Position numbers and translations under genes: made by a program. From assembly GCA_028817035.1 (NCBI GenBank), contig JAPPQH010000010.1, positions 11,546 through 75,545 on the forward strand: DNA of 64,000 nucleotides, read 5' to 3'. Below the pieces are notes generated by a model that saw only the letters and a list, made by a program, of their open reading frames with translations, searched no databases and was not told the origin of the DNA. Positions within the stretch are counted from its first letter, which is position 1, and each line of letters opens with the position of its first letter. This stretch comes from Candidatus Campbellbacteria bacterium (GTDB lineage Bacteria > Patescibacteriota > Minisyncoccia > Phycocordibacterales > JABAAK01). Of the stretch, positions 1,717 through 64,000 are shown piece by piece.

Positions 1717-1953
1717 CCCCTGTCAAGCACGCAAAACCTGCTTGACATTAAGCCAGTAATTTATGCTTTTATTCTCTAACAAGTACTTATATAGGTGACA
1801 ATCAGAAAAGTTTAAAGGCAAAGATAGTTTATATAAACTATCCGAAAAAACTTTTTTGTTTTAGGAAGATGAGGAGGAGAAAGGTTTTTTCTTGGATAAT
1901 GACTAGAATCAATATTGAATATTGAGTTCGCGCTTCGCGCTCACACTATTTTC

Positions 1954-2838
1954 ACCTTATCTCCCCTTATTATCGGGGGCGACAGAAGTTCTAACCGCCT
2001 TATCTCCCCTTATTATCGGGGAGATAATACAACCACCGCGCCTTATCTCCCCTTATTATCGGGGTAGTTGTAATCTCACTGGGCCTTATCTCCCCTTATT
2101 ATCGGGGGGCCACAAACCAGCACGGGCCTTATCTCCCCTTATTATCGGGGCTCCTTTCTGACTTTGTCGCCTTATCTCCCCTTATTATCGGGGGGATGCA
2201 TTCTGCCCCTCGCCTTATCTCCCCTTATTATCGGGGTCGCTCGCATTCTATAATGCCTTATCTCCCCTTATTATCGGGGAAGCGTCAACACCCCCAGGCC
2301 TTATCTCCCCTTATTATCGGGGCGCAAAAGATAAAGACATGCCTTATCTCCCCTTATTATCGGGGATTTTACGCTTACAACAAGCCTTATCTCCCCTTAT
2401 TATCGGGGGGTTATAAAAGGCATCTCGCCTTATCTCCCCTTATTATCGGGGAGTGTCATATCATGACTAGCCTTATCTCCCCTTATTATCGGGGTGAGAT
2501 AATCCCACGGATGCCTTATCTCCCCTTATTATCGGGGAGTTAGTCCTTCGTTTTCGCCTTATCTCCCCTTATTATCGGGGTATATTCTCTCAGAATCGGC
2601 CTTATCTCCCCTTATTATCGGGGCAGGATTATATCGACCTCGCCTTATCTCCCCTTATTATCGGGGAAATACGATTACCGACATGCCTTATCTCCCCTTA
2701 TTATCGGGGACATCTTCAAAAGAACACGCCTTATCTCCCCTTATTATCGGGGTGCTCTTTTTGTATTCATGCCTTATCTCCCCTTATTATCGGGGTTTTC
2801 AATTTTTAAGGTTGCCTTATCTCCCCTTATTATCGGGG
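1954..2838. CRISPR. CRISPR array: 21 repeats of GCCTTATCTCCCCTTATTATCGGGG (25 nt) with 20 spacers of 18 nt, period 43 nt
   Basis: Repeat copies start at 1955+43k (k=0..20) by direct reading. Repeat contains internal palindrome CCCC-N8-GGGG. The base preceding the repeat is a instead of g at the 1955-side copy and at the 2384 copy. Short repeat and 17-19 nt spacers are characteristic of Cas12d/CasY arrays. Confidence 0.95.
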
Positions 2839-2951
2839 AGTTTATCCGATTTCCCCATATAAATACTTGTTAAAGAACAAAATTAACAAACAAAAGTCAT
2901 ATCAAAACACCAATGTTTATTAACTACTATTTAATTATAGCATACTTTTAT
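2839..2951 (-). promoter_or_regulatory. putative CRISPR leader / array promoter (AT-rich, TATAAT on minus strand)
   Basis: 113-nt AT-rich spacer between cas1 stop and first cas-proximal repeat; minus strand reads ...gtatgcTATAATtaaatag. Degenerate terminal repeat lies at the opposite (1955) end. Confidence 0.35.
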
Positions 2952-3995
2952 TTACTTGTCTCTATCGGTGTTGATAACCCAATCCTTTGAAACTCTTTCT
3001 GCTTCAATGTTAAAGTCGGTAGGTCCAGCAGAGCGACCATACAACTTATACCCAACTTTTTTAGGACGACCTCCAAGTGGCCTTCCGGGGATCGGAACAA
3101 TAAACTTTTTGGCATCGCCCAATAAATACGCCCTCAGTGCCAATATGTTACCATGCAAAAGTTCTTGAAAAGTAACTATCTGCCTTGTTTGATGTGTATA
3201 AACTTTTTTATCAAGTAAGTCTTCTACGCCCTTAGTCGCAAATGCAACCAAATTTTTGTTATCCCTGTTAGTTTTATGTACTCCTTTTATTGTTTCAAAA
3301 ATATTTTTTTCAATATAACCTCTGTAGGGTTCCATAAGATCATATACAAGTGATGGATAGTCAGTTGGTATATGCATAAATCCGTGGTATGGACTCATTT
3401 TGTGATAGGTTATATATCTCAAAATCACACCGCTGATTAACTTGGACACTGCGTTTAACACAGAGCTTATAACATTTTTTCTATTTCTTCTTTCTGATTC
3501 TTTGTTTCCCAATTTTGCATAATACTTCTTCCAATACCTCACCGCATGAAGTGCTTCTATAGATCTTAAGTCCTTTACACTTTTTGCAAATTTTATCTTA
3601 TGTATTGTGTGTTTATTGTTGGGCAGAAGCCACTCCATTGATTTCACTTTTGCTAACAATAATTTCCTTGCTATATGTAAAGATTTTATTTTATTTTCTC
3701 TGAAAATAATTTGTTTAGTCAGTATGTCATCTATATTCGTTGTTGTGGTACCAGTAATCCATATAGCCTTTGACATATGCCTTCTATGTATGCAAATTGG
3801 TATGTTATATCTAATGCATAACTGTAAAAACTCTTCATCCAAAGGACATACAGCACCATAAAATAAAATTGAGGAAATTCTACTCCATGGAATATCAAGC
3901 ACTCCGCCCTTGAATTTAAAAGTAGCCTTGTCTTTTTGCCAAGAAATATCGCTAGTATATGGCAACCAAATTGGTATTTTACTTTTTCCTGGCAT
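2952..3995 (-). CDS. cas1: CRISPR-associated endonuclease Cas1
   Basis: 347 aa; conserved Cas1 catalytic region SPYHGFMH...LVYDLMEPYR; directly flanks CRISPR array; 17-nt overlap with upstream effector gene. Confidence 0.9.
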   Translation of the reverse strand: MPGKSKIPIWLPYTSDISWQKDKATFKFKGGVLDIPWSRISSILFYGAVCPLDEEFLQLCIRYNIPICIHRRHMSKAIWITGTTTTNIDDILTKQIIFRENKIKSLHIARKLLLAKVKSMEWLLPNNKHTIHKIKFAKSVKDLRSIEALHAVRYWKKYYAKLGNKESERRNRKNVISSVLNAVSKLISGVILRYITYHKMSPYHGFMHIPTDYPSLVYDLMEPYRGYIEKNIFETIKGVHKTNRDNKNLVAFATKGVEDLLDKKVYTHQTRQIVTFQELLHGNILALRAYLLGDAKKFIVPIPGRPLGGRPKKVGYKLYGRSAGPTDFNIEAERVSKDWVINTDRDK

Positions 3996-6900
3996 TTTTA
4001 CTTATAATATCATTAAAGGATTTTCTTGGCATGTTTAACTTTACTGGTTTGAAACCCATATCTTTGTATTTGTTCATTTCATCTTGGAAATTGGCTTTTG
4101 TATTTTTCTTATCTTTCTTAAACCAAGCCCTTAAACCTATAATCAAAGATGCTTGTATATCTGCATCTGATATATGTCCACAGCCCTTAAATGGGCAAAC
4201 AAAAATTCCAGAGTTTCCTGCTGTCTCGTAAAACTTTTTCCGTTCCTTGTTATCATATTTCTTGAAGAAAGCGTCTTTTATAACTGGATGGTCTTTAAAA
4301 GACTCGCTGTTTAATTTAACATTCTTTTCATTTTCTACATCAAAGATTGGAGGTCTTGCAAAATCTTGTATAGATTTTATTAGTTCTTTTGTTTTCATAG
4401 CACCCTTCTTTTTATCTCCCTCCAAAAAGCCATACACTTCTTGCCCATTATCTATAGTTGCTTTTATATATTTACTATTATTGATTCTTTCCCACTCCCA
4501 AGAAACTTCTTCTGTTTCCTTCTTTTTGCTTGCTTTCTTTTTAGACTTTTCATTTTGCATATCTCTTATAGTGTACAAACTTCTCCAACATTCTGTACAT
4601 ACATAACTTGTCCCGTAAGCACTTTTATGAACACCAATAAAGTTACTAGTGCCCCATACATGCTCTCTTGTCATTTTTTCTGACGGATTATTTTCTGTTG
4701 CAACATCCGCAGTTTTTACTGTTTTATATAAAGCAGTCAATCGAGAGCTACCCGTCTCAAAGTTACTTATTGAAAGCTCATAACTTGGTATCGCATTATA
4801 CCGAACAGCCACATCATGTATACGGTTTTTTAATGAACTACTTATTGATTTTCTGATTTCTGCAAGTTTTGTATTAGAGGATGTAAAGGTCGCTGCTTTT
4901 TGTTTTTCTTTGTTCTCTTTGAATCGCTCTCTGACTTTCCTTATTCCTTTTTCATAATCAAACCAAGAAAATAAAAGTTTTTTATTTTTAATATCTATTA
5001 AAGAAAAGGCGAGACCATATTCACCAACATCTATGCCAAGATACCTATTCCTTTCTTCAAGCTCTGCCTTTATTTCTTTTTGTCCCAAATTCTTTTTTAC
5101 CTTTAACTCAAATGGAATAGAGATAAAGATTTTGGAACTACCCCTCACTTTATTAAAAACTGGCTGATCTTTTGACCAGTCAATTTGATAATCTTCTTCT
5201 CCTATAAATGAATAATCAGAAATTTTTACATCAAAATCCTTATTAATAGAATTGCCAAAAAATGGAGAAGATTCGTTCAAAAATTGAGTTTGGTATTTTG
5301 AACTTTGGATCTTAAAACCACAATTAATATTTTCAACTGGTATAAAGTTCTTCTTCTTTGATGGGTCCTTTGTCTTATCTGATAATTGTAAAAAGTCTGT
5401 TTCTGTTTTTGTTTTAGATAAGTTTTCCTTTTTGGCTATATACCAAAGATTATCTTTTTTATCAAAAACCAGAGGAAAATCAGCACCAGAACCCATGGGC
5501 TGAACAACATATCTTTCTTTAAATATTTTTTTGCTTAATATATTTAGCGTTCCCTTCATTTCTGCAAAGAAATATCTTTGCAAAATTGTATTAATTTTAT
5601 CTCCATCCAATGTCTTACCCTCTTGTAATTTTAGATATTCCCCAGCTTCTTCAAAACGTTTAGTTTTAGAGAAATTTTTTAGAAAATCACTTTTACTGAC
5701 ACTTATCTTTTTATAGTAAGTAATTAATCCTATTCTAATCTTTTCAAGTTCAATAGCATCAATATGTTCTCTTATATTTTCTAATTTTCTTTTCTTAAAA
5801 TCAGGTCTCAGTAAATCAATTAATTTTGGTATTGAATCAAAAATTTCTTCTATATTTTTACCTAATTCTAACTCTTTCCAATTTCCTCTTCTCTTATACT
5901 TTGTAAAAACTTCTTTCTCCTTAAGTCCTTTAATATCAATGCCTGTTGTTGTTGTGATTGCCTTTTGAATTATATTCTGTGCCCAAGGGGTTGAATCTTT
6001 GTATAGATTGTTTAAAGTATCAAATCTTCTTAACAATGTAATTTTTTCATTCTCAACATCTTCATCTTCAATTTTCCTTAATTCTAAATCATTATCTAAC
6101 ATCTTTCTTAATCGTTCAATTATATCCAAACCATCTTTGTACATTTCTTTTGAATTCAATATTTTTGTCAAGTGCTCTTTTTTTCTTATACCAGGAAAAG
6201 TTGGAAATTTTGGCAATGTCGCAAAAACTGATTTATATTTATTTCTCTCTTTCTTCAATTCTTTTTCTTCCATCTCTGGATTTTGTGCTTGTATAAATTT
6301 ATTTAATTCAACACGAAGATCGCCTAAAATTCTTGAGTATATATCAAATGATTTCGCCAATAAATTAGTTTTTATTGATTTATTTAGATTTATCAACTCA
6401 TTTGTTAAATTTTTTAATCTATCAATATTTTTATTATTTTTTTCTTTGATAATATCAAGCAAAGTTTTTAAATGCTCTTCATGTCCAGGAACCCCTACAT
6501 CTTTGCCATCCTTATCTTTTTTGGTATATCCAAACAAAACATGGTCTATGTCTTCTTTTTGATTTTCTGTATTACTTATCCAAGAACTTAATTTACCGCC
6601 CATCGTTGTTCTATATTCTGCCCAACTTTTTGCCATATATGGTGTTTCGGGTAATAATTTTGCACGGGACGATAACCATTTTAATCTTTTTTCTAATTCT
6701 TTTTCTTTACCCTTCCATAAATCAGAGTTAATATTTAATATCATTTCTTTTGCTTTATCTATATCACCTTCACGAACCGGTTTAAGGAATTTATTAAAGG
6801 CATAACTTAGTGGGTTATGATTGGTTGCCATAGCCAAAAAAGAGATTGGGTTTTCGCCATACTTTTTCCTTACTCTGTCTATTAAATCCTGTTCTTTAAC

Positions 6901-7650
6901 ATCTTCTTTGGCAAACTCAAAATCTGGGTGTATAAACAACGCACCTTCATTATTACCTTTTTCTATAAAACTAACTCCAAAATTTTTTGACCAAAATTCT
7001 TTTTGTTTATCTGCTTTTATAGTCTCGCCATCCGACTTACAAATCCCTTTGTATATCTGTTCTGTGTATTTCCTAACCTCTTTTCTATTTTTTATATATA
7101 TACTGTGCTTAAAAATACCTGTTTTACCCTTTAATTTTTCTTCATTTTTATCTTTTGATAAAATTCCTTCAATTCTATCTTGATTACCATAAAATATATT
7201 TTTTATTTCTTCTTCTCCAGATTTCTTTCTTACACCGCCAGAGAGCCTTATTTTATTATTAAAAGAATCAAAATCTATTAAATCAAAGAATTTTAGATCT
7301 TTCTTCTTCATATCCTTCTTGACCTCATTATTAGCACTGTCATCTATAAAACTCTTTATTTTAAATACATTGTCATGAAACACACTTCCAACTCTTAGAA
7401 AATCAAGATATAAATCAAATAATGAATATTCTCCTCTGCCATCTTTCAATGTTGTTGCATTAAACTGACCAACTTGACCTTCATAATCACATCTTATCTG
7501 ATTCATAAGATTTTCTGTTTCTGATTCATCCTTAAATACAATTGGAAATTTTATTGTTCTGATTGCCTTACCACCAGTATATTTTAACCTTCTTAGATGA
7601 AGTTTATAACCTGTCATTCCCTTGTATTTTCTTGATCGTTTTGCTTTCAT
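3979..7650 (-). CDS. cas12d: type V-D CRISPR effector Cas12d (CasY)-like nuclease
   Basis: 1223 aa. RuvC-I LGIDVGEYGLAFSLID (D874, codon at 5029-5031), RuvC-II ...IPSYELSISNFE (E958), zinc ribbon CTECW (C1018/C1021) ... CPFKGC (C1152/C1157), RuvC-III SDADIQASLIIG (D1162/D1164). N-terminus GYKLHLRRLKYTGGKAIRTIKFP and motif WAEYRTTMGGKLSSW resemble published CasY N-terminal/helical motifs as recalled. Operonic with cas1 and short-spacer array. Confidence 0.85.
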   Translation of the reverse strand: MKAKRSRKYKGMTGYKLHLRRLKYTGGKAIRTIKFPIVFKDESETENLMNQIRCDYEGQVGQFNATTLKDGRGEYSLFDLYLDFLRVGSVFHDNVFKIKSFIDDSANNEVKKDMKKKDLKFFDLIDFDSFNNKIRLSGGVRKKSGEEEIKNIFYGNQDRIEGILSKDKNEEKLKGKTGIFKHSIYIKNRKEVRKYTEQIYKGICKSDGETIKADKQKEFWSKNFGVSFIEKGNNEGALFIHPDFEFAKEDVKEQDLIDRVRKKYGENPISFLAMATNHNPLSYAFNKFLKPVREGDIDKAKEMILNINSDLWKGKEKELEKRLKWLSSRAKLLPETPYMAKSWAEYRTTMGGKLSSWISNTENQKEDIDHVLFGYTKKDKDGKDVGVPGHEEHLKTLLDIIKEKNNKNIDRLKNLTNELINLNKSIKTNLLAKSFDIYSRILGDLRVELNKFIQAQNPEMEEKELKKERNKYKSVFATLPKFPTFPGIRKKEHLTKILNSKEMYKDGLDIIERLRKMLDNDLELRKIEDEDVENEKITLLRRFDTLNNLYKDSTPWAQNIIQKAITTTTGIDIKGLKEKEVFTKYKRRGNWKELELGKNIEEIFDSIPKLIDLLRPDFKKRKLENIREHIDAIELEKIRIGLITYYKKISVSKSDFLKNFSKTKRFEEAGEYLKLQEGKTLDGDKINTILQRYFFAEMKGTLNILSKKIFKERYVVQPMGSGADFPLVFDKKDNLWYIAKKENLSKTKTETDFLQLSDKTKDPSKKKNFIPVENINCGFKIQSSKYQTQFLNESSPFFGNSINKDFDVKISDYSFIGEEDYQIDWSKDQPVFNKVRGSSKIFISIPFELKVKKNLGQKEIKAELEERNRYLGIDVGEYGLAFSLIDIKNKKLLFSWFDYEKGIRKVRERFKENKEKQKAATFTSSNTKLAEIRKSISSSLKNRIHDVAVRYNAIPSYELSISNFETGSSRLTALYKTVKTADVATENNPSEKMTREHVWGTSNFIGVHKSAYGTSYVCTECWRSLYTIRDMQNEKSKKKASKKKETEEVSWEWERINNSKYIKATIDNGQEVYGFLEGDKKKGAMKTKELIKSIQDFARPPIFDVENEKNVKLNSESFKDHPVIKDAFFKKYDNKERKKFYETAGNSGIFVCPFKGCGHISDADIQASLIIGLRAWFKKDKKNTKANFQDEMNKYKDMGFKPVKLNMPRKSFNDIISKNARKK

Positions 7651-7698
7651 ATCAGTTTATTTTAGCACAAAGACTTTTATTTTGGAATAAAGCGATAT

Positions 7699-7735
7699 AA
7701 AAAAAAAGCCCCGAGGCTCGAAGAGCACTCGGGGC
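7699..7735 (-). terminator. Rho-independent terminator for gene 7761..8234
   Basis: GC hairpin gccccgag-N12-ctcggggc (7708-7735) followed on minus strand by T9 (A-run 7699-7707 on plus). Confidence 0.7.
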
Positions 7736-7760: not shown

Positions 7761-8234
7761 TTATTCACCATCCTGTGTTGAGTCAGCATCCTGCATCAAC
7801 TTCATAAACTCGTCTCGCGCAACCTCGTTTTGTTCCTGGTTGCGTTCACTATAACCTTCGTTTGCAGCATCTCGCAAATCACTCTCTGCAGGACCGATTT
7901 CAGGTGTTGGAGCTTTGTCATACTCTCGGACTTGCTCCTCAAGCAGAGGATTTGCGGGCTGTATCACCGTTTTGGGTCGATACCCCATTTCTACCTGTGA
8001 GTAGATAATGGCTGCCGCAAAAAACACCATCCAGAGACCGATGCACCACTTGTTTGACCAAAGTACATCGCCGACTGGAGACGCTCTTTCGCTTCCGTCA
8101 ACCATTTTGGGGTCTGCTTGCTCCACTTGGTTCGCCATCCTGCGCCAAATAGCAACTGCCGAAACAATCACTACAAGCCACAGAACAACTTTGATAAGAG
8201 CAAACCCAAAGACTGAGATGGCAGTGATATCCAT
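7761..8234 (-). CDS. hypothetical membrane protein (2 TM, acidic C-terminus), co-operonic with SPFH protein
   Basis: 157 aa; higher-GC than genome background; 13-nt gap to upstream SPFH gene. Confidence 0.5.
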   Translation of the reverse strand: MDITAISVFGFALIKVVLWLVVIVSAVAIWRRMANQVEQADPKMVDGSERASPVGDVLWSNKWCIGLWMVFFAAAIIYSQVEMGYRPKTVIQPANPLLEEQVREYDKAPTPEIGPAESDLRDAANEGYSERNQEQNEVARDEFMKLMQDADSTQDGE

Positions 8235-10485: not shown

Positions 10486-10557
10486 TGACCCTACGGGGAA
10501 TCGAACCCCGATTTTCGCCGTGAAAGGGCGATGTCCTGGCCGTTAGACGATAGGGCC
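10486..10557 (-). tRNA. tRNA-Glu (anticodon UUC)
   Basis: Reverse complement folds as GGCCCTA/TAGGGTC acceptor, anticodon stem TCGCC/GGCGA with loop CTTTCAC, T-arm CGGGG-TTCGATT-CCCCG; CCA not encoded. Confidence 0.8.
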
Positions 10558-10612
10558 AATGATAAGATTATACTCTAAAATTATAAACCCTTCCCAGTTA
10601 TGGGAAGGGTTG

Positions 10613-10685
10613 TGACCCAGCGGGGATTTGAACCCCGATTTTCGCCTTGAAAGGGCGATGTCCTCACCGGTTAGACGACAGGGTC
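10613..10685 (-). tRNA. tRNA-Glu (anticodon UUC), second copy with divergent acceptor stem
   Basis: Anticodon arm TCGCC-CTTTCAA-GGCGA; T-arm CGGGG-TTCAAAT-CCCCG; acceptor GACCCTG/CTGGGTC has one T-T mismatch in the canonical register (alternative register GTGACCC/GGGTCAC is perfect but gives non-canonical junctions). Confidence 0.6.
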
Positions 10686-10740
10686 ACGGTTGAAATTGTA
10701 AACCCCTCCCATTTGCGGGAGGGGCTGTATGCAAGGTGAA

Positions 10741-10902
10741 TCACTTCCTGCGGAGTTCCTTGTTGCGTTCCAAACCAAAAGCGACCTCTGGCGGTAGCGG
10801 TAAATCAGAAGGAAGTCCGCATTGATCACAAAAATCCACCGTGGGTTCGTTTTCCTTCAAGCATGTGGAACACTTCCAACCTTCTGCGCCTGCAAGACAC
10901 AT
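10741..10902 (-). CDS. small zinc-ribbon protein (53 aa), unannotated in ORF track
   Basis: Translates MCLAGAEGWKCSTCLKENEPTVDFCDQCGLPSDLPLPPEVAFGLERNKELRRK with CxxC...CxxC; GGAGG 8 nt upstream of ATG; followed by hairpin cccctccc-N6-gggagggg (10702-10728). Confidence 0.35.
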   Translation of the reverse strand: MCLAGAEGWKCSTCLKENEPTVDFCDQCGLPSDLPLPPEVAFGLERNKELRRK

Positions 10903-11052
10903 ATCAGTACCTCCGTTGATTTTTGCAAAAGAACTTTGGGGTTTAACCCATTTTTATATGCTATCATATCTCCCAAAATATGTCAAGTATAAGAAAAGCC
11001 GATAATCAAGCCCATTACCTTAACCTAAATCTTTTAGTATAATTACCATGTT

Positions 11053-11126
11053 GGGCGATTAGCTCAGTTGGCTAGAGCGCTCCCTTGACGTGGGAGAGGT
11101 CACAGGTTCGAATCCTGTATCGCCCA
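11053..11126 (+). tRNA. tRNA-Val (anticodon GAC)
   Basis: GGGCGAT/ATCGCCC acceptor, D-arm GCTC-AGTTGGCTA-GAGC, anticodon arm CTCCC-TTGACGT-GGGAG, T-arm ACAGG-TTCGAAT-CCTGT. Confidence 0.85.
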
Positions 11127-11798: not shown

Positions 11799-12971
11799 AT
11801 GAGGTTGTTCGCTATTGAGACAAGTTGCGATGAAACTGCTGTTTGTTTTTTGGATGCGGTAGAGAAAGATGGTGGCGATCACAAGATAGAGGTTCTGTCT
11901 CATATATTAATCTCACAGGCAGAGAAACACGCTGAATATGGTGGCGTGTTCCCTACTCTTGCGAAACGCGAGCATGCTAAAAATCTTGTTCCCATCACTT
12001 TGAAAGCGCTTGAAGAGGTGGGTGTAGAAAAGGTTGGCGACAGGGTTATGGATAAAAATGATGAGGAGAAAATTGGAAAAATTCTTGAACGGGAGGAGGA
12101 GTTAAAGGAAAGTTTTATTGAGGAAATTGCGAAGTGTGGGGTGCCTGATGTGGATGCTATCGCTGTTTGTGTCGGTCCTGGTTTAGAGCCAACCCTTTGG
12201 GTGGGTATCAATTTTGCAGAGGCGCTTTCTGTTTTGTGGGATAAGCCGATAATACCTGTGAATCATATGGAGGGACACATTGTGTCTTCATTTTTTGATA
12301 ACAATACTTTGAAAAAATTTCCTATGCCGTTGCTTTCGCTTTTAATTTCTGGAGGACATACAGAGCTTGTCCTTTCAGAGAAACAAAATGATTATAGAAA
12401 AATTGGTTCCACGAGAGATGATGCTGTTGGTGAGAGTTTTGACAAGGTGGCGAGGCTTCTTGGTCTTTCTTATCCAGGGGGTCCTGAGGTGGCAAGGTTG
12501 GCAAGTCTATCACGCACAAGGGCTAAAAAGATTGATGTGAGATTTCCACGCCCAATGATAAAAGATGATGGTTTTGATTTCTCTTTCTCTGGTCTTAAAA
12601 CAGCGGTCAGGTATTTTGTTGAGGGAAAAAATTTAACTGATGCGGAGAAAGAAGATGTTGCTTGTGAGTTTGAGGATGCAGTCACAGAGGTCCTTGTGAC
12701 AAAGACAAAAATGGCTATTTTGAAACACCGACCGAGTGCGCTTGCCGTTGGCGGTGGCGTGGCTGCAAACAAGAATATAAAGGAGGCTATGACAAAGATG
12801 GTGGCGGAGCTTGATTTCCCTGTTTCGCTCCACATACCAAAACCAAAAGATGCGACTGACAACGCGATAATGATTGGTCTGTCGGGTTATCTCAACTCAA
12901 TGCAGAAAGATTATGGAATGGCTGTGTATGAGATAAGGGCTGACAGTTCCCTCTCATATCTAAAAAACTGA
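11799..12971 (+). CDS. tsaD: tRNA N6-adenosine threonylcarbamoyltransferase TsaD (Kae1/Gcp family)
   Basis: 390 aa; N-terminal IETSCDETAV and metal-binding region, 6-nt gap after rhodanese gene. Confidence 0.9.
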   Translation: MRLFAIETSCDETAVCFLDAVEKDGGDHKIEVLSHILISQAEKHAEYGGVFPTLAKREHAKNLVPITLKALEEVGVEKVGDRVMDKNDEEKIGKILEREEELKESFIEEIAKCGVPDVDAIAVCVGPGLEPTLWVGINFAEALSVLWDKPIIPVNHMEGHIVSSFFDNNTLKKFPMPLLSLLISGGHTELVLSEKQNDYRKIGSTRDDAVGESFDKVARLLGLSYPGGPEVARLASLSRTRAKKIDVRFPRPMIKDDGFDFSFSGLKTAVRYFVEGKNLTDAEKEDVACEFEDAVTEVLVTKTKMAILKHRPSALAVGGGVAANKNIKEAMTKMVAELDFPVSLHIPKPKDATDNAIMIGLSGYLNSMQKDYGMAVYEIRADSSLSYLKN

Positions 12972-61095: not shown

Positions 61096-63552
61096 CTATT
61101 TTTCTAACCTATGAATATGAATATTGGGATATTGCCTTTCGAGTTTATTAAATTCTTCATCACTCATATTTCGGCTAACAACTAGTCTTTCTAAATTATA
61201 AGGACGACGTGGTGGTGGAAATTCTTCTGCATTTGTGAGACCTTTGAGTTCAAGCCACCAAACACTCTCAGGTATCTTCAACCCTTCTGCAGTTTTGAGA
61301 CCGTTGAGAGAAAGCCTCTTCACACTCTCAGGCATCTTCAACCCTTCTGGGTTTGTGAGACCGTTGAGAGAAAGAATCTTCACACCCCCAGGTATATTCA
61401 ACCCTTCTGGGTTTGTGAGACCGTTGAGTTCAAGATGCTTCACACCCTCAGGTATATTCAACCCTTCTGGGTTTGTGAGACCGTTGAGTTCAAGATGCTT
61501 CACACCCTCAGGTATATTCAACCCTTCTGGGTTTGTGAGACCGTTGAGTTCAAGATGCTTCACACCCTCAGGTATCTTCAACCCTTCTGCAGTTTTGAGA
61601 CCGTTGAGATAAAGCTCCTCCACACCCTCAGGTATATTCAACCCTTCTGGGTTTGTGAGACCGTTGAGATAAAGCCACCTCACACCCTCAGGTATATTCA
61701 ACCTTTCTGGGTTTGTGAGACCGTTGAGAGAAAGACCCCTCACACCCTTAGGTATCTTCAACCCTTCTGGGTTTGTGAGACCGTCGAGAGAAAGAATCTT
61801 CATGCCCTCAGGTATATTCAACCCTTCTGGGTTTGTGAGACCGTTGAGAAAAAGTGCCATCACACCCTTAGGTATCTTCAACCCTTCTGCAGTTTTGAGA
61901 CCGTTGAAATCAAGTTCCAACACACCCTCAGGTATATTCAACCCTTCTGGGTTTGTGAGACCGTTGAGATGAAGATGCTGCACGCCCTCAGGTATATTCA
62001 ACCCTTCTGGGTTTGTGAGACCGTTGAGAGAAAGTGACCACACACCCTCAGGTATATTCAACCCTTCTGGGTTTGTGAGACCATTGAGTTCAAGATTCTC
62101 CACACCCTCAGGTAATGGCGGAATGTCTTTTATATTTGTGGTTGAAAGAATAATTATGTATTCACCCCCAACAACAATTGGAAATTTAGTTCCGCCGTTT
62201 CTTTTTAGTTCTGCTAATTCTTTATCTTCAATTAATAAATTCCCAAGGTGATACACGCATTTACCAGATAGGGCTTCTTCTTCCGAAGTGCTTATTTGAT
62301 CCTTTGGAACACCAAAGATATATGCAACATCTTCTATTTTATCTCTTCCTCTCAGTATTTCTTCTATCATCTCTTCACCTCCTAAGAAGTTGTGTATCTT
62401 GCCATCAATTTCATATAGAAAGCGTAGGTCTTCTTTTGATATTGATAGTGGGCTGTTGTGGATCTCTGTAACCCGTTTCATGTCCTCCGCTGCCTTGTTG
62501 TATCTCTCCGCTTCTTGTGGGTATTCCTCAAGCTTTTCTTTGAGGACAGGGAATATGTATTCATCTAATGTTTGCCCCTCTTCTATCCCGCTTATCTCGC
62601 GTATACCTTTCCCTCTAAACGCTATCGTCAATCTTGGGATAGTGGGGTCTCCTCTTTTATCATTGGAATAGTAGATAAGGGCATCTCCATTGTCTAAGTA
62701 CCCTTCGCAAGTATTGATAGAACCTTCTAAACACCAGCCAGTGTGATGTCCTTGAAGTGAATCAAACATTTCTTTTTCTTGTCCTTTTGTAAATCTTCTC
62801 CACTTACCATCAATCACCTCAAGATGCTCAGCACCTCTGTTTCTTTTCAATATCTCCATCCTTCTGATGTATGCCTTTACAAAGTTTTTGTTCTCTAAGT
62901 ATGTTCTAAATTCCTCATCTTCTGTTTCTATGTCCTTACCTTCCACTATCTTATTGAAATGCTCATATATTCCCGCAAGGGCTTGTTTGTTTAATGTTAG
63001 GAATGGTTTTGCTGTGTATTTTGTTCTTTTGTAGAATTGCTTCTCATTTACTTTGTATTCACCCACACGCAACACATTCTTTAGGGCAAGGAACTTAAAC
63101 CAAAGGGGATATGCGTCTGTCTCATGTGATGCAAAATACTCTATCCAATTGTAGAGACTATCCTCTTGGTCTCCTATCACCCTTTCTGCATATTCTTTCT
63201 TCAGTCTTGGAATCTCACTCTTTGTTATGTCCTCACCCCATGATATGTCCTTACCCCTATCTCTTTCTATTTTTAGATGATTATTAAATGCCTTAGATAT
63301 ATTCTCCTCTTTTATGATATGGTTTCTCTTCACCATCCTCCATATCGCCTCTACCCCTCTTTCCCTCTTTTGTTCGTCCTCCCTTTGCAACACTTGTGCA
63401 TAACGATCCAGAAATACCTTAATAATTTCTTCTGGCTTGTCTATCTTTTCACCAGTCCTTACCTCCTCCCTTTTTGCAGGTCCTCTAATCTTTTTGAATA
63501 AATGTTGGTCGGCACCTCCCAAGAACTCTGCACCCATCTTGTTTTCTTTCAT
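61096..63552 (-). CDS. leucine-rich-repeat protein (about 20 tandem 22-aa LNGLTNPEGLNIPEGVxxLxLNG repeats) with ~470-aa N-terminal domain of unknown function
   Basis: 818 aa; repeats encoded by near-identical 66-bp DNA units; no signal peptide seen; conserved C-terminal tail ERLVVSRNMSDEEFNKLERQYPNIHIHRLEK. Confidence 0.7.
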   Translation of the reverse strand: MKENKMGAEFLGGADQHLFKKIRGPAKREEVRTGEKIDKPEEIIKVFLDRYAQVLQREDEQKRERGVEAIWRMVKRNHIIKEENISKAFNNHLKIERDRGKDISWGEDITKSEIPRLKKEYAERVIGDQEDSLYNWIEYFASHETDAYPLWFKFLALKNVLRVGEYKVNEKQFYKRTKYTAKPFLTLNKQALAGIYEHFNKIVEGKDIETEDEEFRTYLENKNFVKAYIRRMEILKRNRGAEHLEVIDGKWRRFTKGQEKEMFDSLQGHHTGWCLEGSINTCEGYLDNGDALIYYSNDKRGDPTIPRLTIAFRGKGIREISGIEEGQTLDEYIFPVLKEKLEEYPQEAERYNKAAEDMKRVTEIHNSPLSISKEDLRFLYEIDGKIHNFLGGEEMIEEILRGRDKIEDVAYIFGVPKDQISTSEEEALSGKCVYHLGNLLIEDKELAELKRNGGTKFPIVVGGEYIIILSTTNIKDIPPLPEGVENLELNGLTNPEGLNIPEGVWSLSLNGLTNPEGLNIPEGVQHLHLNGLTNPEGLNIPEGVLELDFNGLKTAEGLKIPKGVMALFLNGLTNPEGLNIPEGMKILSLDGLTNPEGLKIPKGVRGLSLNGLTNPERLNIPEGVRWLYLNGLTNPEGLNIPEGVEELYLNGLKTAEGLKIPEGVKHLELNGLTNPEGLNIPEGVKHLELNGLTNPEGLNIPEGVKHLELNGLTNPEGLNIPGGVKILSLNGLTNPEGLKMPESVKRLSLNGLKTAEGLKIPESVWWLELKGLTNAEEFPPPRRPYNLERLVVSRNMSDEEFNKLERQYPNIHIHRLEK
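61235..62110. repeat. array of ~13 tandem 66-bp coding repeats (several copies 100 percent identical)
   Basis: e.g. cacaccctcaggtatattcaacccttctgggtttgtgagaccgttgagttcaagatgctt repeated back-to-back at 61440, 61506. Confidence 0.85.
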
Positions 63553-63654: not shown

Positions 63655-64000
63655 TTATCTCCGCTCAATTTCAATATGAGGATATTGCTCTTTGAGTTTA
63701 TTAACTTCTTCATCACTCATATGTTGGCTAACAGTTAGTCTTTCTAAATCATTAGGAAGTGGTGGAAATTCTTCTGCACTTGGGAGACCCTTGAGTTCAA
63801 GCCACACCACCCTCTCAGGCATATTCAACCCTTCTGGGTTTGTGAGACCGTTGAGAGAAAGATCCAGCACACTCTCAGGTATCTTCAACCCTTCTGGGTT
63901 TGTGAGACCGTTGAGTTCAAGATTCTGCACACCCTCAGGTATATTCAACCCTTCTGGGTTTGTGAGACCGTTGAGAGAAAGACACCTCACACCCTCAGGT
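63655..64000 (-). CDS. LRR protein paralog, C-terminal part (5' end beyond window)
   Basis: Same 22-aa repeats and C-terminal tail (ERLTVSQHMSDEEVNKLKEQYPHIEIERR) as 61096..63552. Confidence 0.65.
   Translation of the reverse strand, partial: PEGVRCLSLNGLTNPEGLNIPEGVQNLELNGLTNPEGLKIPESVLDLSLNGLTNPEGLNMPERVVWLELKGLPSAEEFPPLPNDLERLTVSQHMSDEEVNKLKEQYPHIEIERR

Follow-up and report, generated by a model that had tools for sequence, protein, structure and literature searches.

We describe here a CRISPR (short palindromic repeats, clustered and regularly interspaced) locus in a 64,000-nt stretch of DNA from a Candidatus Campbellbacteria bacterium (GenBank contig JAPPQH010000010.1, positions 11,546 to 75,545; below, "the window", with positions counted from its first letter). 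It includes an array at 1954-2838, for which a model that saw only the letters and their reading frames (the sequence-only reading) had proposed minus-strand transcription from a leader at the cas1 side. Taken along the minus strand, the order would be cas12d, cas1, promoter and leader, array, scoutRNA, and a trailer segment. The array is very probably part of a complete type V-D (Cas12d/CasY) system of a bacterium of the Candidate Phyla Radiation (CPR), operating through CRISPR RNAs (crRNAs) and a scoutRNA made from the minus strand. As such the locus is an ordinary, apparently intact member of its type, with an effector that is already annotated in NCBI.

The effector gene cas12d/casY (3979-7650, minus strand) encodes 1223 aa. 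The protein matches the NCBIfam Cas12d equivalog NF033951 with 1054.3 bits (cutoff 250) over profile positions 1-1180 of 1180, and the PADLOC Cas12d model at 5.9e-136. It is 100% identical to a protein from a metagenome-assembled genome, listed at NCBI as 'type V CRISPR-associated protein Cas12d [Candidatus Campbellbacteria bacterium]', and ~30-50% identical to the relatives retrieved in this analysis. It has CxxC pairs and a single RuvC domain whose catalytic D/E/D is intact, in the motifs GIDVGE (D874), SYELS (E958) and DAD (1162-1164), residues assigned by alignment only; GIDVGE and SYELS align to the RuvC of Cas12c2, the only solved structure with sequence similarity to the effector (RuvC region, E = 2e-7). 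We rejected a type V-C (Cas12c) assignment, as the model NF033950 gave only 36.2 bits against its cutoff of 250, and only in the RuvC region. The cas1 gene (2952-3995, minus strand; 347 aa, Pfam 6.4e-24) overlaps the end of cas12d by 17 nt, and both cas genes lie on the strand proposed for the array, as the sequence-only reading had it. Among six other open reading frames (ORFs) tested between 368 and 10399, none matched Cas2 or Cas4 in Pfam, NCBIfam or PADLOC; V-C and V-D systems without cas2 have been described (PMC6977970).

The array comprises 21 repeats of 25 nt (crRNA sense CCCCGAUAAUAAGGGGAGAUAAGGC; minus-strand sequence CCCCGATAATAAGGGGAGATAAGGC, plus-strand sequence GCCTTATCTCCCCTTATTATCGGGG) and 20 spacers, all exactly 18 nt and no two alike, giving a period of 43 nt and bearing out the earlier count of 20 such spacers. 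Twenty-one copies of a 25-mer at a fixed 43-nt spacing are far beyond chance. Twenty of the 21 repeat copies are the same over all 25 positions, and the sole deviating copy is the one at 1954, where the outer base is A instead of G (plus strand). The sequence-only reading had noted this substitution and a second one at 2384; the first is there, but the 2384 copy is intact, position 2384 being G. It had also remarked on the very short spacers, rightly as to length, but this length is a defining trait of type V-D, whose published characters are 17-19-nt spacers, repeats of ~25-26 nt, a cas1-only module and the requirement for a scoutRNA (bioRxiv 10.1101/2023.12.12.571249); 18-nt spacers are therefore neither an anomaly nor a novelty. 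Short spacers and a ~25-26-nt repeat likewise occur in about 30 related arrays that we retrieved. Spacer GC content (1979-2813) averages ~0.34 over the 12 leader-proximal spacers and ~0.51 over the eight distal ones, a shift that may mark a change of targeted elements over time. Directly past the last repeat is a small GC hairpin, GCGC-GAA-GCGC (1926-1942, minus strand), without a T-run behind it.

For KbCas12d, a crRNA active in vitro consists of cuccgaaaguaucggggauaaaggc followed by an 18-nt guide, its target bearing a 5'-TA protospacer adjacent motif (PAM) (supplement, bioRxiv 10.1101/2023.12.12.571249). The minus-strand repeat of the window agrees with the KbCas12d repeat CTCCGAAAGTATCGGGGATAAAGGC in orientation, in its hairpin and in the 3' AAGGC beside the guide; a repeat consensus with 3' AAGGC is common to about 30 arrays. 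We used for comparison a set of sibling loci with Cas12d proteins about 30-50% identical (L001, L002, L004, L005 and L006), to which a metagenome pattern scan for this repeat class added 43 further loci. The repeat is co-oriented with cas12d in all five of these array-bearing siblings, independent of whether the array is placed upstream of cas12d or downstream of cas1. Decay of the 3' AAGGC in the last repeat (crRNA sense) was seen in 14 distinct arrays, among them this one (AAGGT) and that of L006 (AAGTT); the first repeat is variant in only two arrays among all loci. The last repeat has no spacer after it and so is dispensable only under the minus-strand orientation. This comparison of repeat-end degeneracy across related arrays, which had been suggested along with the sequence-only reading, puts the decay at the distal end and agrees with that reading's placement of the degenerate distal repeat at the 1955 end.

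Four independent lines, namely the KbCas12d-like orientation of the repeat, its co-orientation with cas12d in the siblings, the terminal-repeat decay and the leader with its promoter (taken up below), support the minus strand as the crRNA strand, in agreement with the transcription direction claimed from the letters; the predicted scoutRNA adds to this support. In this orientation 2814-2838 (minus strand) is the first, leader-proximal repeat and the likely integration site of new spacers, a polarity that follows from leader conservation and terminal-repeat decay, and 1954-1978 (minus strand) is the terminal distal repeat, with its 3' anchor mutated from AAGGC to AAGGU and no spacer after it. 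By homology to the KbCas12d crRNA, each crRNA would consist of the 25-nt repeat as a 5' handle (a CCCC/GGGG hairpin, then AGAUAAGGC) and an 18-nt guide, and mature crRNAs would be expected at ~43 nt from the minus strand, with the 5' start CCCCGAUAAU.

The leader (2839-2933, minus strand) includes a conserved repeat-proximal block at 2844-2882, the 5' arm of the long-range helix considered below. The segment 2839-2951 is 23% GC. A promoter-like site at 2934-2962 (minus strand), of the form GAGACA-17-TATAAT with an extended TG (TGCTATAAT at 2934-2942), overlaps the stop codon of cas1, with conservation in L001, L003, L004 and L006; its TATAAT is at 2939-2934, with the TG before it and GAGACA 17 nt upstream. 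The ~113-nt leader aligns with those of L001, L004 and L006, where an invariant ATGCTAT.AT box stands at a fixed ~96 nt from repeat 1, followed by the conserved repeat-proximal block. These observations support a leader at the cas1 side, where the sequence-only reading had seen an AT-rich leader at 2839-2951 with a minus-strand TATAAT. The array of L001 is not beside cas1, yet it has the same leader and -10 box, from which we conclude that the array has its own promoter and leader and hence that a single cas12d-cas1-array transcript is not required. The earlier idea of one transcription unit thus keeps its shared strand and loses its necessity, although read-through from cas1 is possible because no terminator-like site lies between cas1 and the array.

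On the far side of the array, unseen in the sequence-only reading, we predict the core of a scoutRNA at 1800-1861 (minus strand). It has an outer stem (1848-1861 with 1800-1813), a UUUCG, an inner hairpin (1823-1842) and the unpaired dock UUUGCCUUU (1814-1822), and reads on the minus strand AAACAAAAAAGUUU-UUUCG-GAUAGUUUAUAUAAACUAUC-UUUGCCUUU-AAACUUUUCUGAUU. The GCCUU of the dock (1819 to 1815) is complementary to the 3' AAGGC of the repeat and is unpaired in the minimum free energy (MFE) fold; the scout stems were recovered in the inverted-repeat search of the window. Sixteen loci have such an element in common; it sits on the strand of the array, 45-150 nt downstream of the last repeat, and its layout is shared: outer stem, UUYC(C/G), inner hairpin, unpaired ..GCCUU.., closing outer-stem strand. 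The minimal active KbCas12d scoutRNA1, aaaggguuuccaguuuuuaacuaaacuuuagccuuccacccuuu (bioRxiv 10.1101/2023.12.12.571249 supplement), has exactly the layout of the 1800-1861 element. The scoutRNA requirement is established for Cas12d in the literature (bioRxiv 10.1101/2023.12.12.571249), and the locus matches it in sequence and predicted fold. Each repeat would offer its 3'-terminal AAGGC as the anchor for the GCCUU dock, a pairing that Cas12d needs for DNA cutting.

Our scout descriptor was hand-written, and its first version was loose, with 1-7 matches per shuffled window. With a strict version, 11 of 27 eligible loci gave a scout on the sense strand no more than 250 nt downstream of the array (~0.02 expected per 250-nt window), and the best-scoring descriptor match in the whole 64-kb window was at 1806-1855 on the minus strand. 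The descriptor alone is unspecific, so the evidence for the scout consists of the positional enrichment together with the match to a validated RNA. A scoutRNA covariance model was abandoned because MAFFT put the 3' strand of the outer stem in inconsistent registers. Rfam had no family matching the scout or leader region, giving only weak chance matches and three tRNAs, and the promoter scan found no scout-specific promoter.

The array and scout behave in places as a module. L021 (about 4570-5000, crRNA sense) has two short arrays with the identical scoutRNA, TTAAGGGTTTCAGGTTCTTCAGGGAACCTTTGCCTTGACCTTAA, after each of them, and we conclude that the array-scout module was duplicated there. L006 has a 29-nt direct repeat (26/29 identical), with one copy 214 nt upstream of cas12d (5759-5787) and the other within the post-scout trailer (12270-12298); this repeat may have been left behind when the module moved from a place upstream of cas12d to one downstream of cas1. 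No equivalent of this direct repeat was found in the window. No GCCTT scout element was found within 300 nt downstream of the arrays in L019, L020, L037, L039, L044, L047, L029/L045 and L035, in whose lineages the scout may be elsewhere or different; the arrays of the first six of these have the Cas12d-type repeat CGCCGAAAGTTAGGAACTAAAAGGC.

Past the scout, and overlapping its outer stem, a trailer arm at 1767-1807 (minus strand) is complementary to the leader at 2844-2882. The inverted-repeat search returned its core as a 29-nt inverted repeat (1767-1795 with 2854-2882, 86% complementarity), which in minus-strand RNA makes 25 Watson-Crick and 4 G·U pairs, all four non-Watson-Crick core positions being G·U. 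With RNAduplex the pairing grows to ~40 nt, beginning 5 nt ahead of repeat 1 and reaching 7 nt past the dock, at a duplex energy of -53.9 kcal/mol for the sense strand, compared with -27.1 for the antisense strand and -21±4 for shuffles. Folding of the whole 1181-nt minus-strand RNA gives the helix in the MFE structure and in the centroid alike, and a two-strand fold accommodates it together with the hairpins of repeat 1 and of the scout and with the anchor:dock pairing.

Leader:trailer pairing was found in 12 of the 14 loci with both flanks present (z between -4 and -9), these being the window, L001, L002, L004, L006, L014, L018, L028, L031, L032, L034 and L042; the sense duplex is stabler than the antisense one in 10 of the 12. 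In pairings across the 12 loci, the best partner of every leader was the trailer of its own locus (diagonal mean -43.3 kcal/mol vs -22.1±5.7 off the diagonal). In a six-locus alignment of a 27-pair core helix, 93% of cells are paired, compared with only 38-58% in partner-slid controls, and 13 of the 27 core pairs show two-sided (compensatory) changes, a number reached by 0 of 500 shuffles. One helix pair is G·U in five of the six aligned loci. Over the 12 divergent loci, the pairs in the arms are 251 Watson-Crick and 31 G·U, with 8 A·C and 8 others. The arms were also tried as a sigma-70 promoter pair, a candidate that we rejected; their TTGACA-like and TATA-like boxes are only ~6 nt apart and the promoter scan calls no promoter there.

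We tentatively propose that, in Cas12d loci, the leader pairs with the segment immediately 3' of the scoutRNA in an RNA helix of ~30-40 bp, conserved and covarying, that closes array and scout as one domain. About 40 nt of leader (2844-2882) would pair directly 3' of the scout (1767-1807), enclosing both, and the helix would probably be a processing or stabilising stem, or a tether that sets the scout dock beside the first repeat. Such a domain might hold the GCCUU dock a few nt from the first repeat, so that the newest spacer would have a natural 'single guide' held together without a covalent bond; its stem might also, or instead, release pre-crRNA and scoutRNA from longer transcripts. Both roles go with the helix and are put forward as tentatively as the helix itself. 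We regard the helix as a lead rather than an established finding, and as the only element of this locus that may go beyond current descriptions. Leader:trailer pairing was not found in the V-D literature searched, a search that did not include the primary scoutRNA paper (Harrington 2020).

Two analogies may be drawn for the helix, the interplay of leader RNA and trans-activating crRNA (tracrRNA) in type II systems and the processing stems of rRNA operons, which are cut by RNase III; they too have a long-range duplex of sequences that flank a multi-unit RNA precursor. In type II-A, leader RNA structure affects use of the first crRNA. No RNase III dependence is known for V-D. Unlike in these analogues, the duplex here, which is a prediction, joins a CRISPR leader to the 3' flank of a scoutRNA.

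The spacers were followed up in the window, the retrieved loci and viral contigs. They have no self-matches in the rest of the window at ≤2 mismatches, nor in the retrieved loci at ≤1 mismatch. Seven spacers (2-8) were scanned against viral contigs, a search that the sequence-only reading had put forward as a way to the PAM; it gave eight exact matches, for three of the seven, with zero for spacers 4, 6, 7 and 8. Spacers 2 and 3 have two matches each, with a 5'-TA flank (crRNA sense) at L056 and L054 and not at L057 and L055. The four matches of spacer 5 are all GC/CC-flanked, three of them in contigs of 54-55% GC and one in a contig of 43%, and were judged chance. The known Cas12d PAM is 5'-TA/TG (PMC6509639). 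A 5'-TA flank at two of eight matches, where about one in eight is expected by chance, and the lack of any contig matched by two spacers are at chance level for 18-mers, and no PAM was derived.

Several other interpretations of the array and its transcription must be considered. That the array is a tandem repeat within coding sequence, or an orphan inactive array, we hold to be practically negligible: ORFs of 79 and 115 aa (plus strand, 1922-2161 and 2196-2543) do overlap it, and the spacer searches yielded no protospacer, but a period of 43 nt does not divide by 3, the combination of invariant repeats and wholly unique spacers is the CRISPR signature, and an intact cas12d, cas1, leader and predicted scoutRNA adjoin the array. 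Plus-strand transcription of array and scout, coming in from the 1717-1953 side and giving crRNAs of the form GCCUUAUCUCCCCUUAUUAUCGGGG plus spacer, is also very improbable. The scout region is made of inverted repeats and is foldable on either strand, the dock/anchor complementarity works on either strand too, and the scout would then come before the array, as the preprint says for KbCas12d; yet the active KbCas12d crRNA has its ...AAGGC end adjoining the guide, the promoter scan of 1717-1953 gave no promoter-like site facing the array, and the conserved leader and -10 box sit at the cas1 side. Plus-strand transcription would moreover make the decayed repeat the first one, needed for the first crRNA, in 14 arrays; it would replace a leader:trailer duplex of -54 kcal/mol with one of -27 here and with a weaker one in 10 of 12 loci, and would turn the G·U pair kept in five of six loci into C·A. 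Under minus-strand transcription, it remains to ask whether the array lacks a promoter of its own and is the mere 3' end of a single cas12d-cas1-array transcript. All parts share a strand, cas12d and cas1 overlap by those 17 nt, and the terminator scan was blank between cas1 and the array, but the extended -10 promoter TGCTATAAT with GAGACA 17 nt upstream at the cas1 stop, its invariant distance of ~96 nt from repeat 1 in L001, L004 and L006 (with no preceding cas1 in L001), and the many loci that have array and scout upstream of cas12d make this improbable, and we favor an array with its own promoter.

A weightier objection, which we still consider unlikely, is that the leader/trailer inverted repeat acts on DNA and forms no RNA helix, as paired sites for Cas1 or a regulator, as promoter elements, or as the relic inverted ends of a mobile array-scout module. 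The arms do hold TTGACA-like and TATA-like boxes, the trailer arm ends 8-25 nt before the cas12d ATG where the array is upstream of cas12d, the module is found at two different positions relative to the cas genes, and Watson-Crick covariation alone cannot tell a DNA from an RNA constraint. The non-Watson-Crick positions, on the other hand, are 31 G·U vs 8 A·C on the sense strand, with one pair G·U in five of six loci; sense duplexes are stabler than antisense in 10 of 12 loci; and two same-direction promoters would be direct, not inverted, repeats. Besides such a role on DNA, several further points weigh against the proposed minus-strand mechanism or its RNA helix. The G·U excess is partly expected from the T/A-rich arms, and the scan found no terminator-like site past the trailer. 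The scout is downstream of the array here and in 15 other loci, unlike that of KbCas12d, which is stated to lie upstream of its array (bioRxiv 10.1101/2023.12.12.571249). No protospacers were identified from the seven spacers in viral contigs and the window, and the transcription start, the read-through from cas1, the scoutRNA ends and the helix are predictions.

With KbCas12d/CasY.1 and other V-D systems of CPR bacteria (Chen 2019, PMC6509639; bioRxiv 10.1101/2023.12.12.571249) the locus shares a Cas12d of ~1200 aa, cas1 without cas2, a 25-nt repeat C.CCG...GGGG..AAGGC, spacers in the 17-19-nt class, a crRNA of repeat then 18-nt guide, and a scoutRNA folded into outer stem and hairpin, within which a GCCUU dock stays unpaired. 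It differs from KbCas12d in having the scoutRNA downstream of the array, from the V-D range of 17-19 nt in that all 20 spacers are exactly 18 nt, and from the V-D relatives retrieved in that its effector is only about 30-50% identical to them. Type V-C (Cas12c) systems are alike in having Cas1 only, in the sequence similarity of Cas12c2 in the RuvC region (E = 2e-7), and in a short anchor at the repeat 3' end that pairs with a dock in the scoutRNA or tracrRNA (PMC9522604); however, the Cas12c tracrRNA makes extra repeat contacts (PMC9522604), and the Cas12c model reaches only 36 bits here. A protein-pattern scan of Joint Genome Institute (JGI) metagenomes, built on the Cas12d alignment, gave no relatives, a profile re-search of the protein database returned the same six proteins only, and a genome scan for relatives found two loci only. 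Works on CasY/Cas12d in CPR bacteria are said to include Burstein 2017 and Harrington 2020.

Upstream of cas12d, an intrinsic terminator of the preceding gene (7723-7700) is followed by the -10-like box TGCTAAAAT (7659-7667) 8 nt before the cas12d ATG, the two together spanning 7659-7723 on the minus strand. This box and a second, TGTGTATAAT (about 1716-1735), end ~8-10 nt before the ATGs of cas12d and of ORF 1123-1716, so close that they suggest leaderless or near-leaderless mRNAs for both genes. The flanking minus-strand ORFs 7761-8234 (157 aa) and 1123-1716 (197 aa) had no match in Pfam, NCBIfam or PADLOC. The three tRNA genes found by Rfam are at 10486-11126, ~3 kb beyond cas12d. At the other end of the window are tandem repeats with a 60-nt unit, 14.2 copies at 61262-62114 and 3.2 copies at 63808-64000. 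The former lie inside an 818-aa minus-strand ORF (61096-63552) that had only sub-threshold leucine-rich-repeat-like Pfam matches, its repeat region probably belonging to a repetitive surface protein; the latter lie outside this ORF and reach the window edge.

Taken as a mechanism, transcription would start at the TGCTATAAT promoter over the cas1 stop and cross ~90 nt of leader into the array. Cas1 without Cas2 would insert ~18-bp spacers at the leader-proximal repeat 2814-2838, as the V-C/V-D literature and the polarity of the array suggest, and such insertion would explain both why the spacers are short and uniform and why the distal repeat at 1954 is decayed and can be dispensed with. Wright 2019 reportedly tied short spacers to a Cas2-less 'mini-integrase'. 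The locus adds one further Cas12d orthologue together with its clean record of 20 spacers; the crRNA orientation is defined and a scoutRNA is predicted, which suffices for guide RNA design for this Cas12d. G·U-biased helices of the kind proposed here would also offer a means of orienting V-D arrays from sequence only. If the helix is an RNA element, a V-D array and its scoutRNA would be produced and dealt with together, as a single structured precursor; at loci with cas12d behind the scout, the longer transcripts from which the stem might release them would also carry the cas12d mRNA. The helix could then account for the setting of scoutRNA ends, for a preference for the newest spacer, and for the ability of the array-scout module to work both before cas12d and after cas1.

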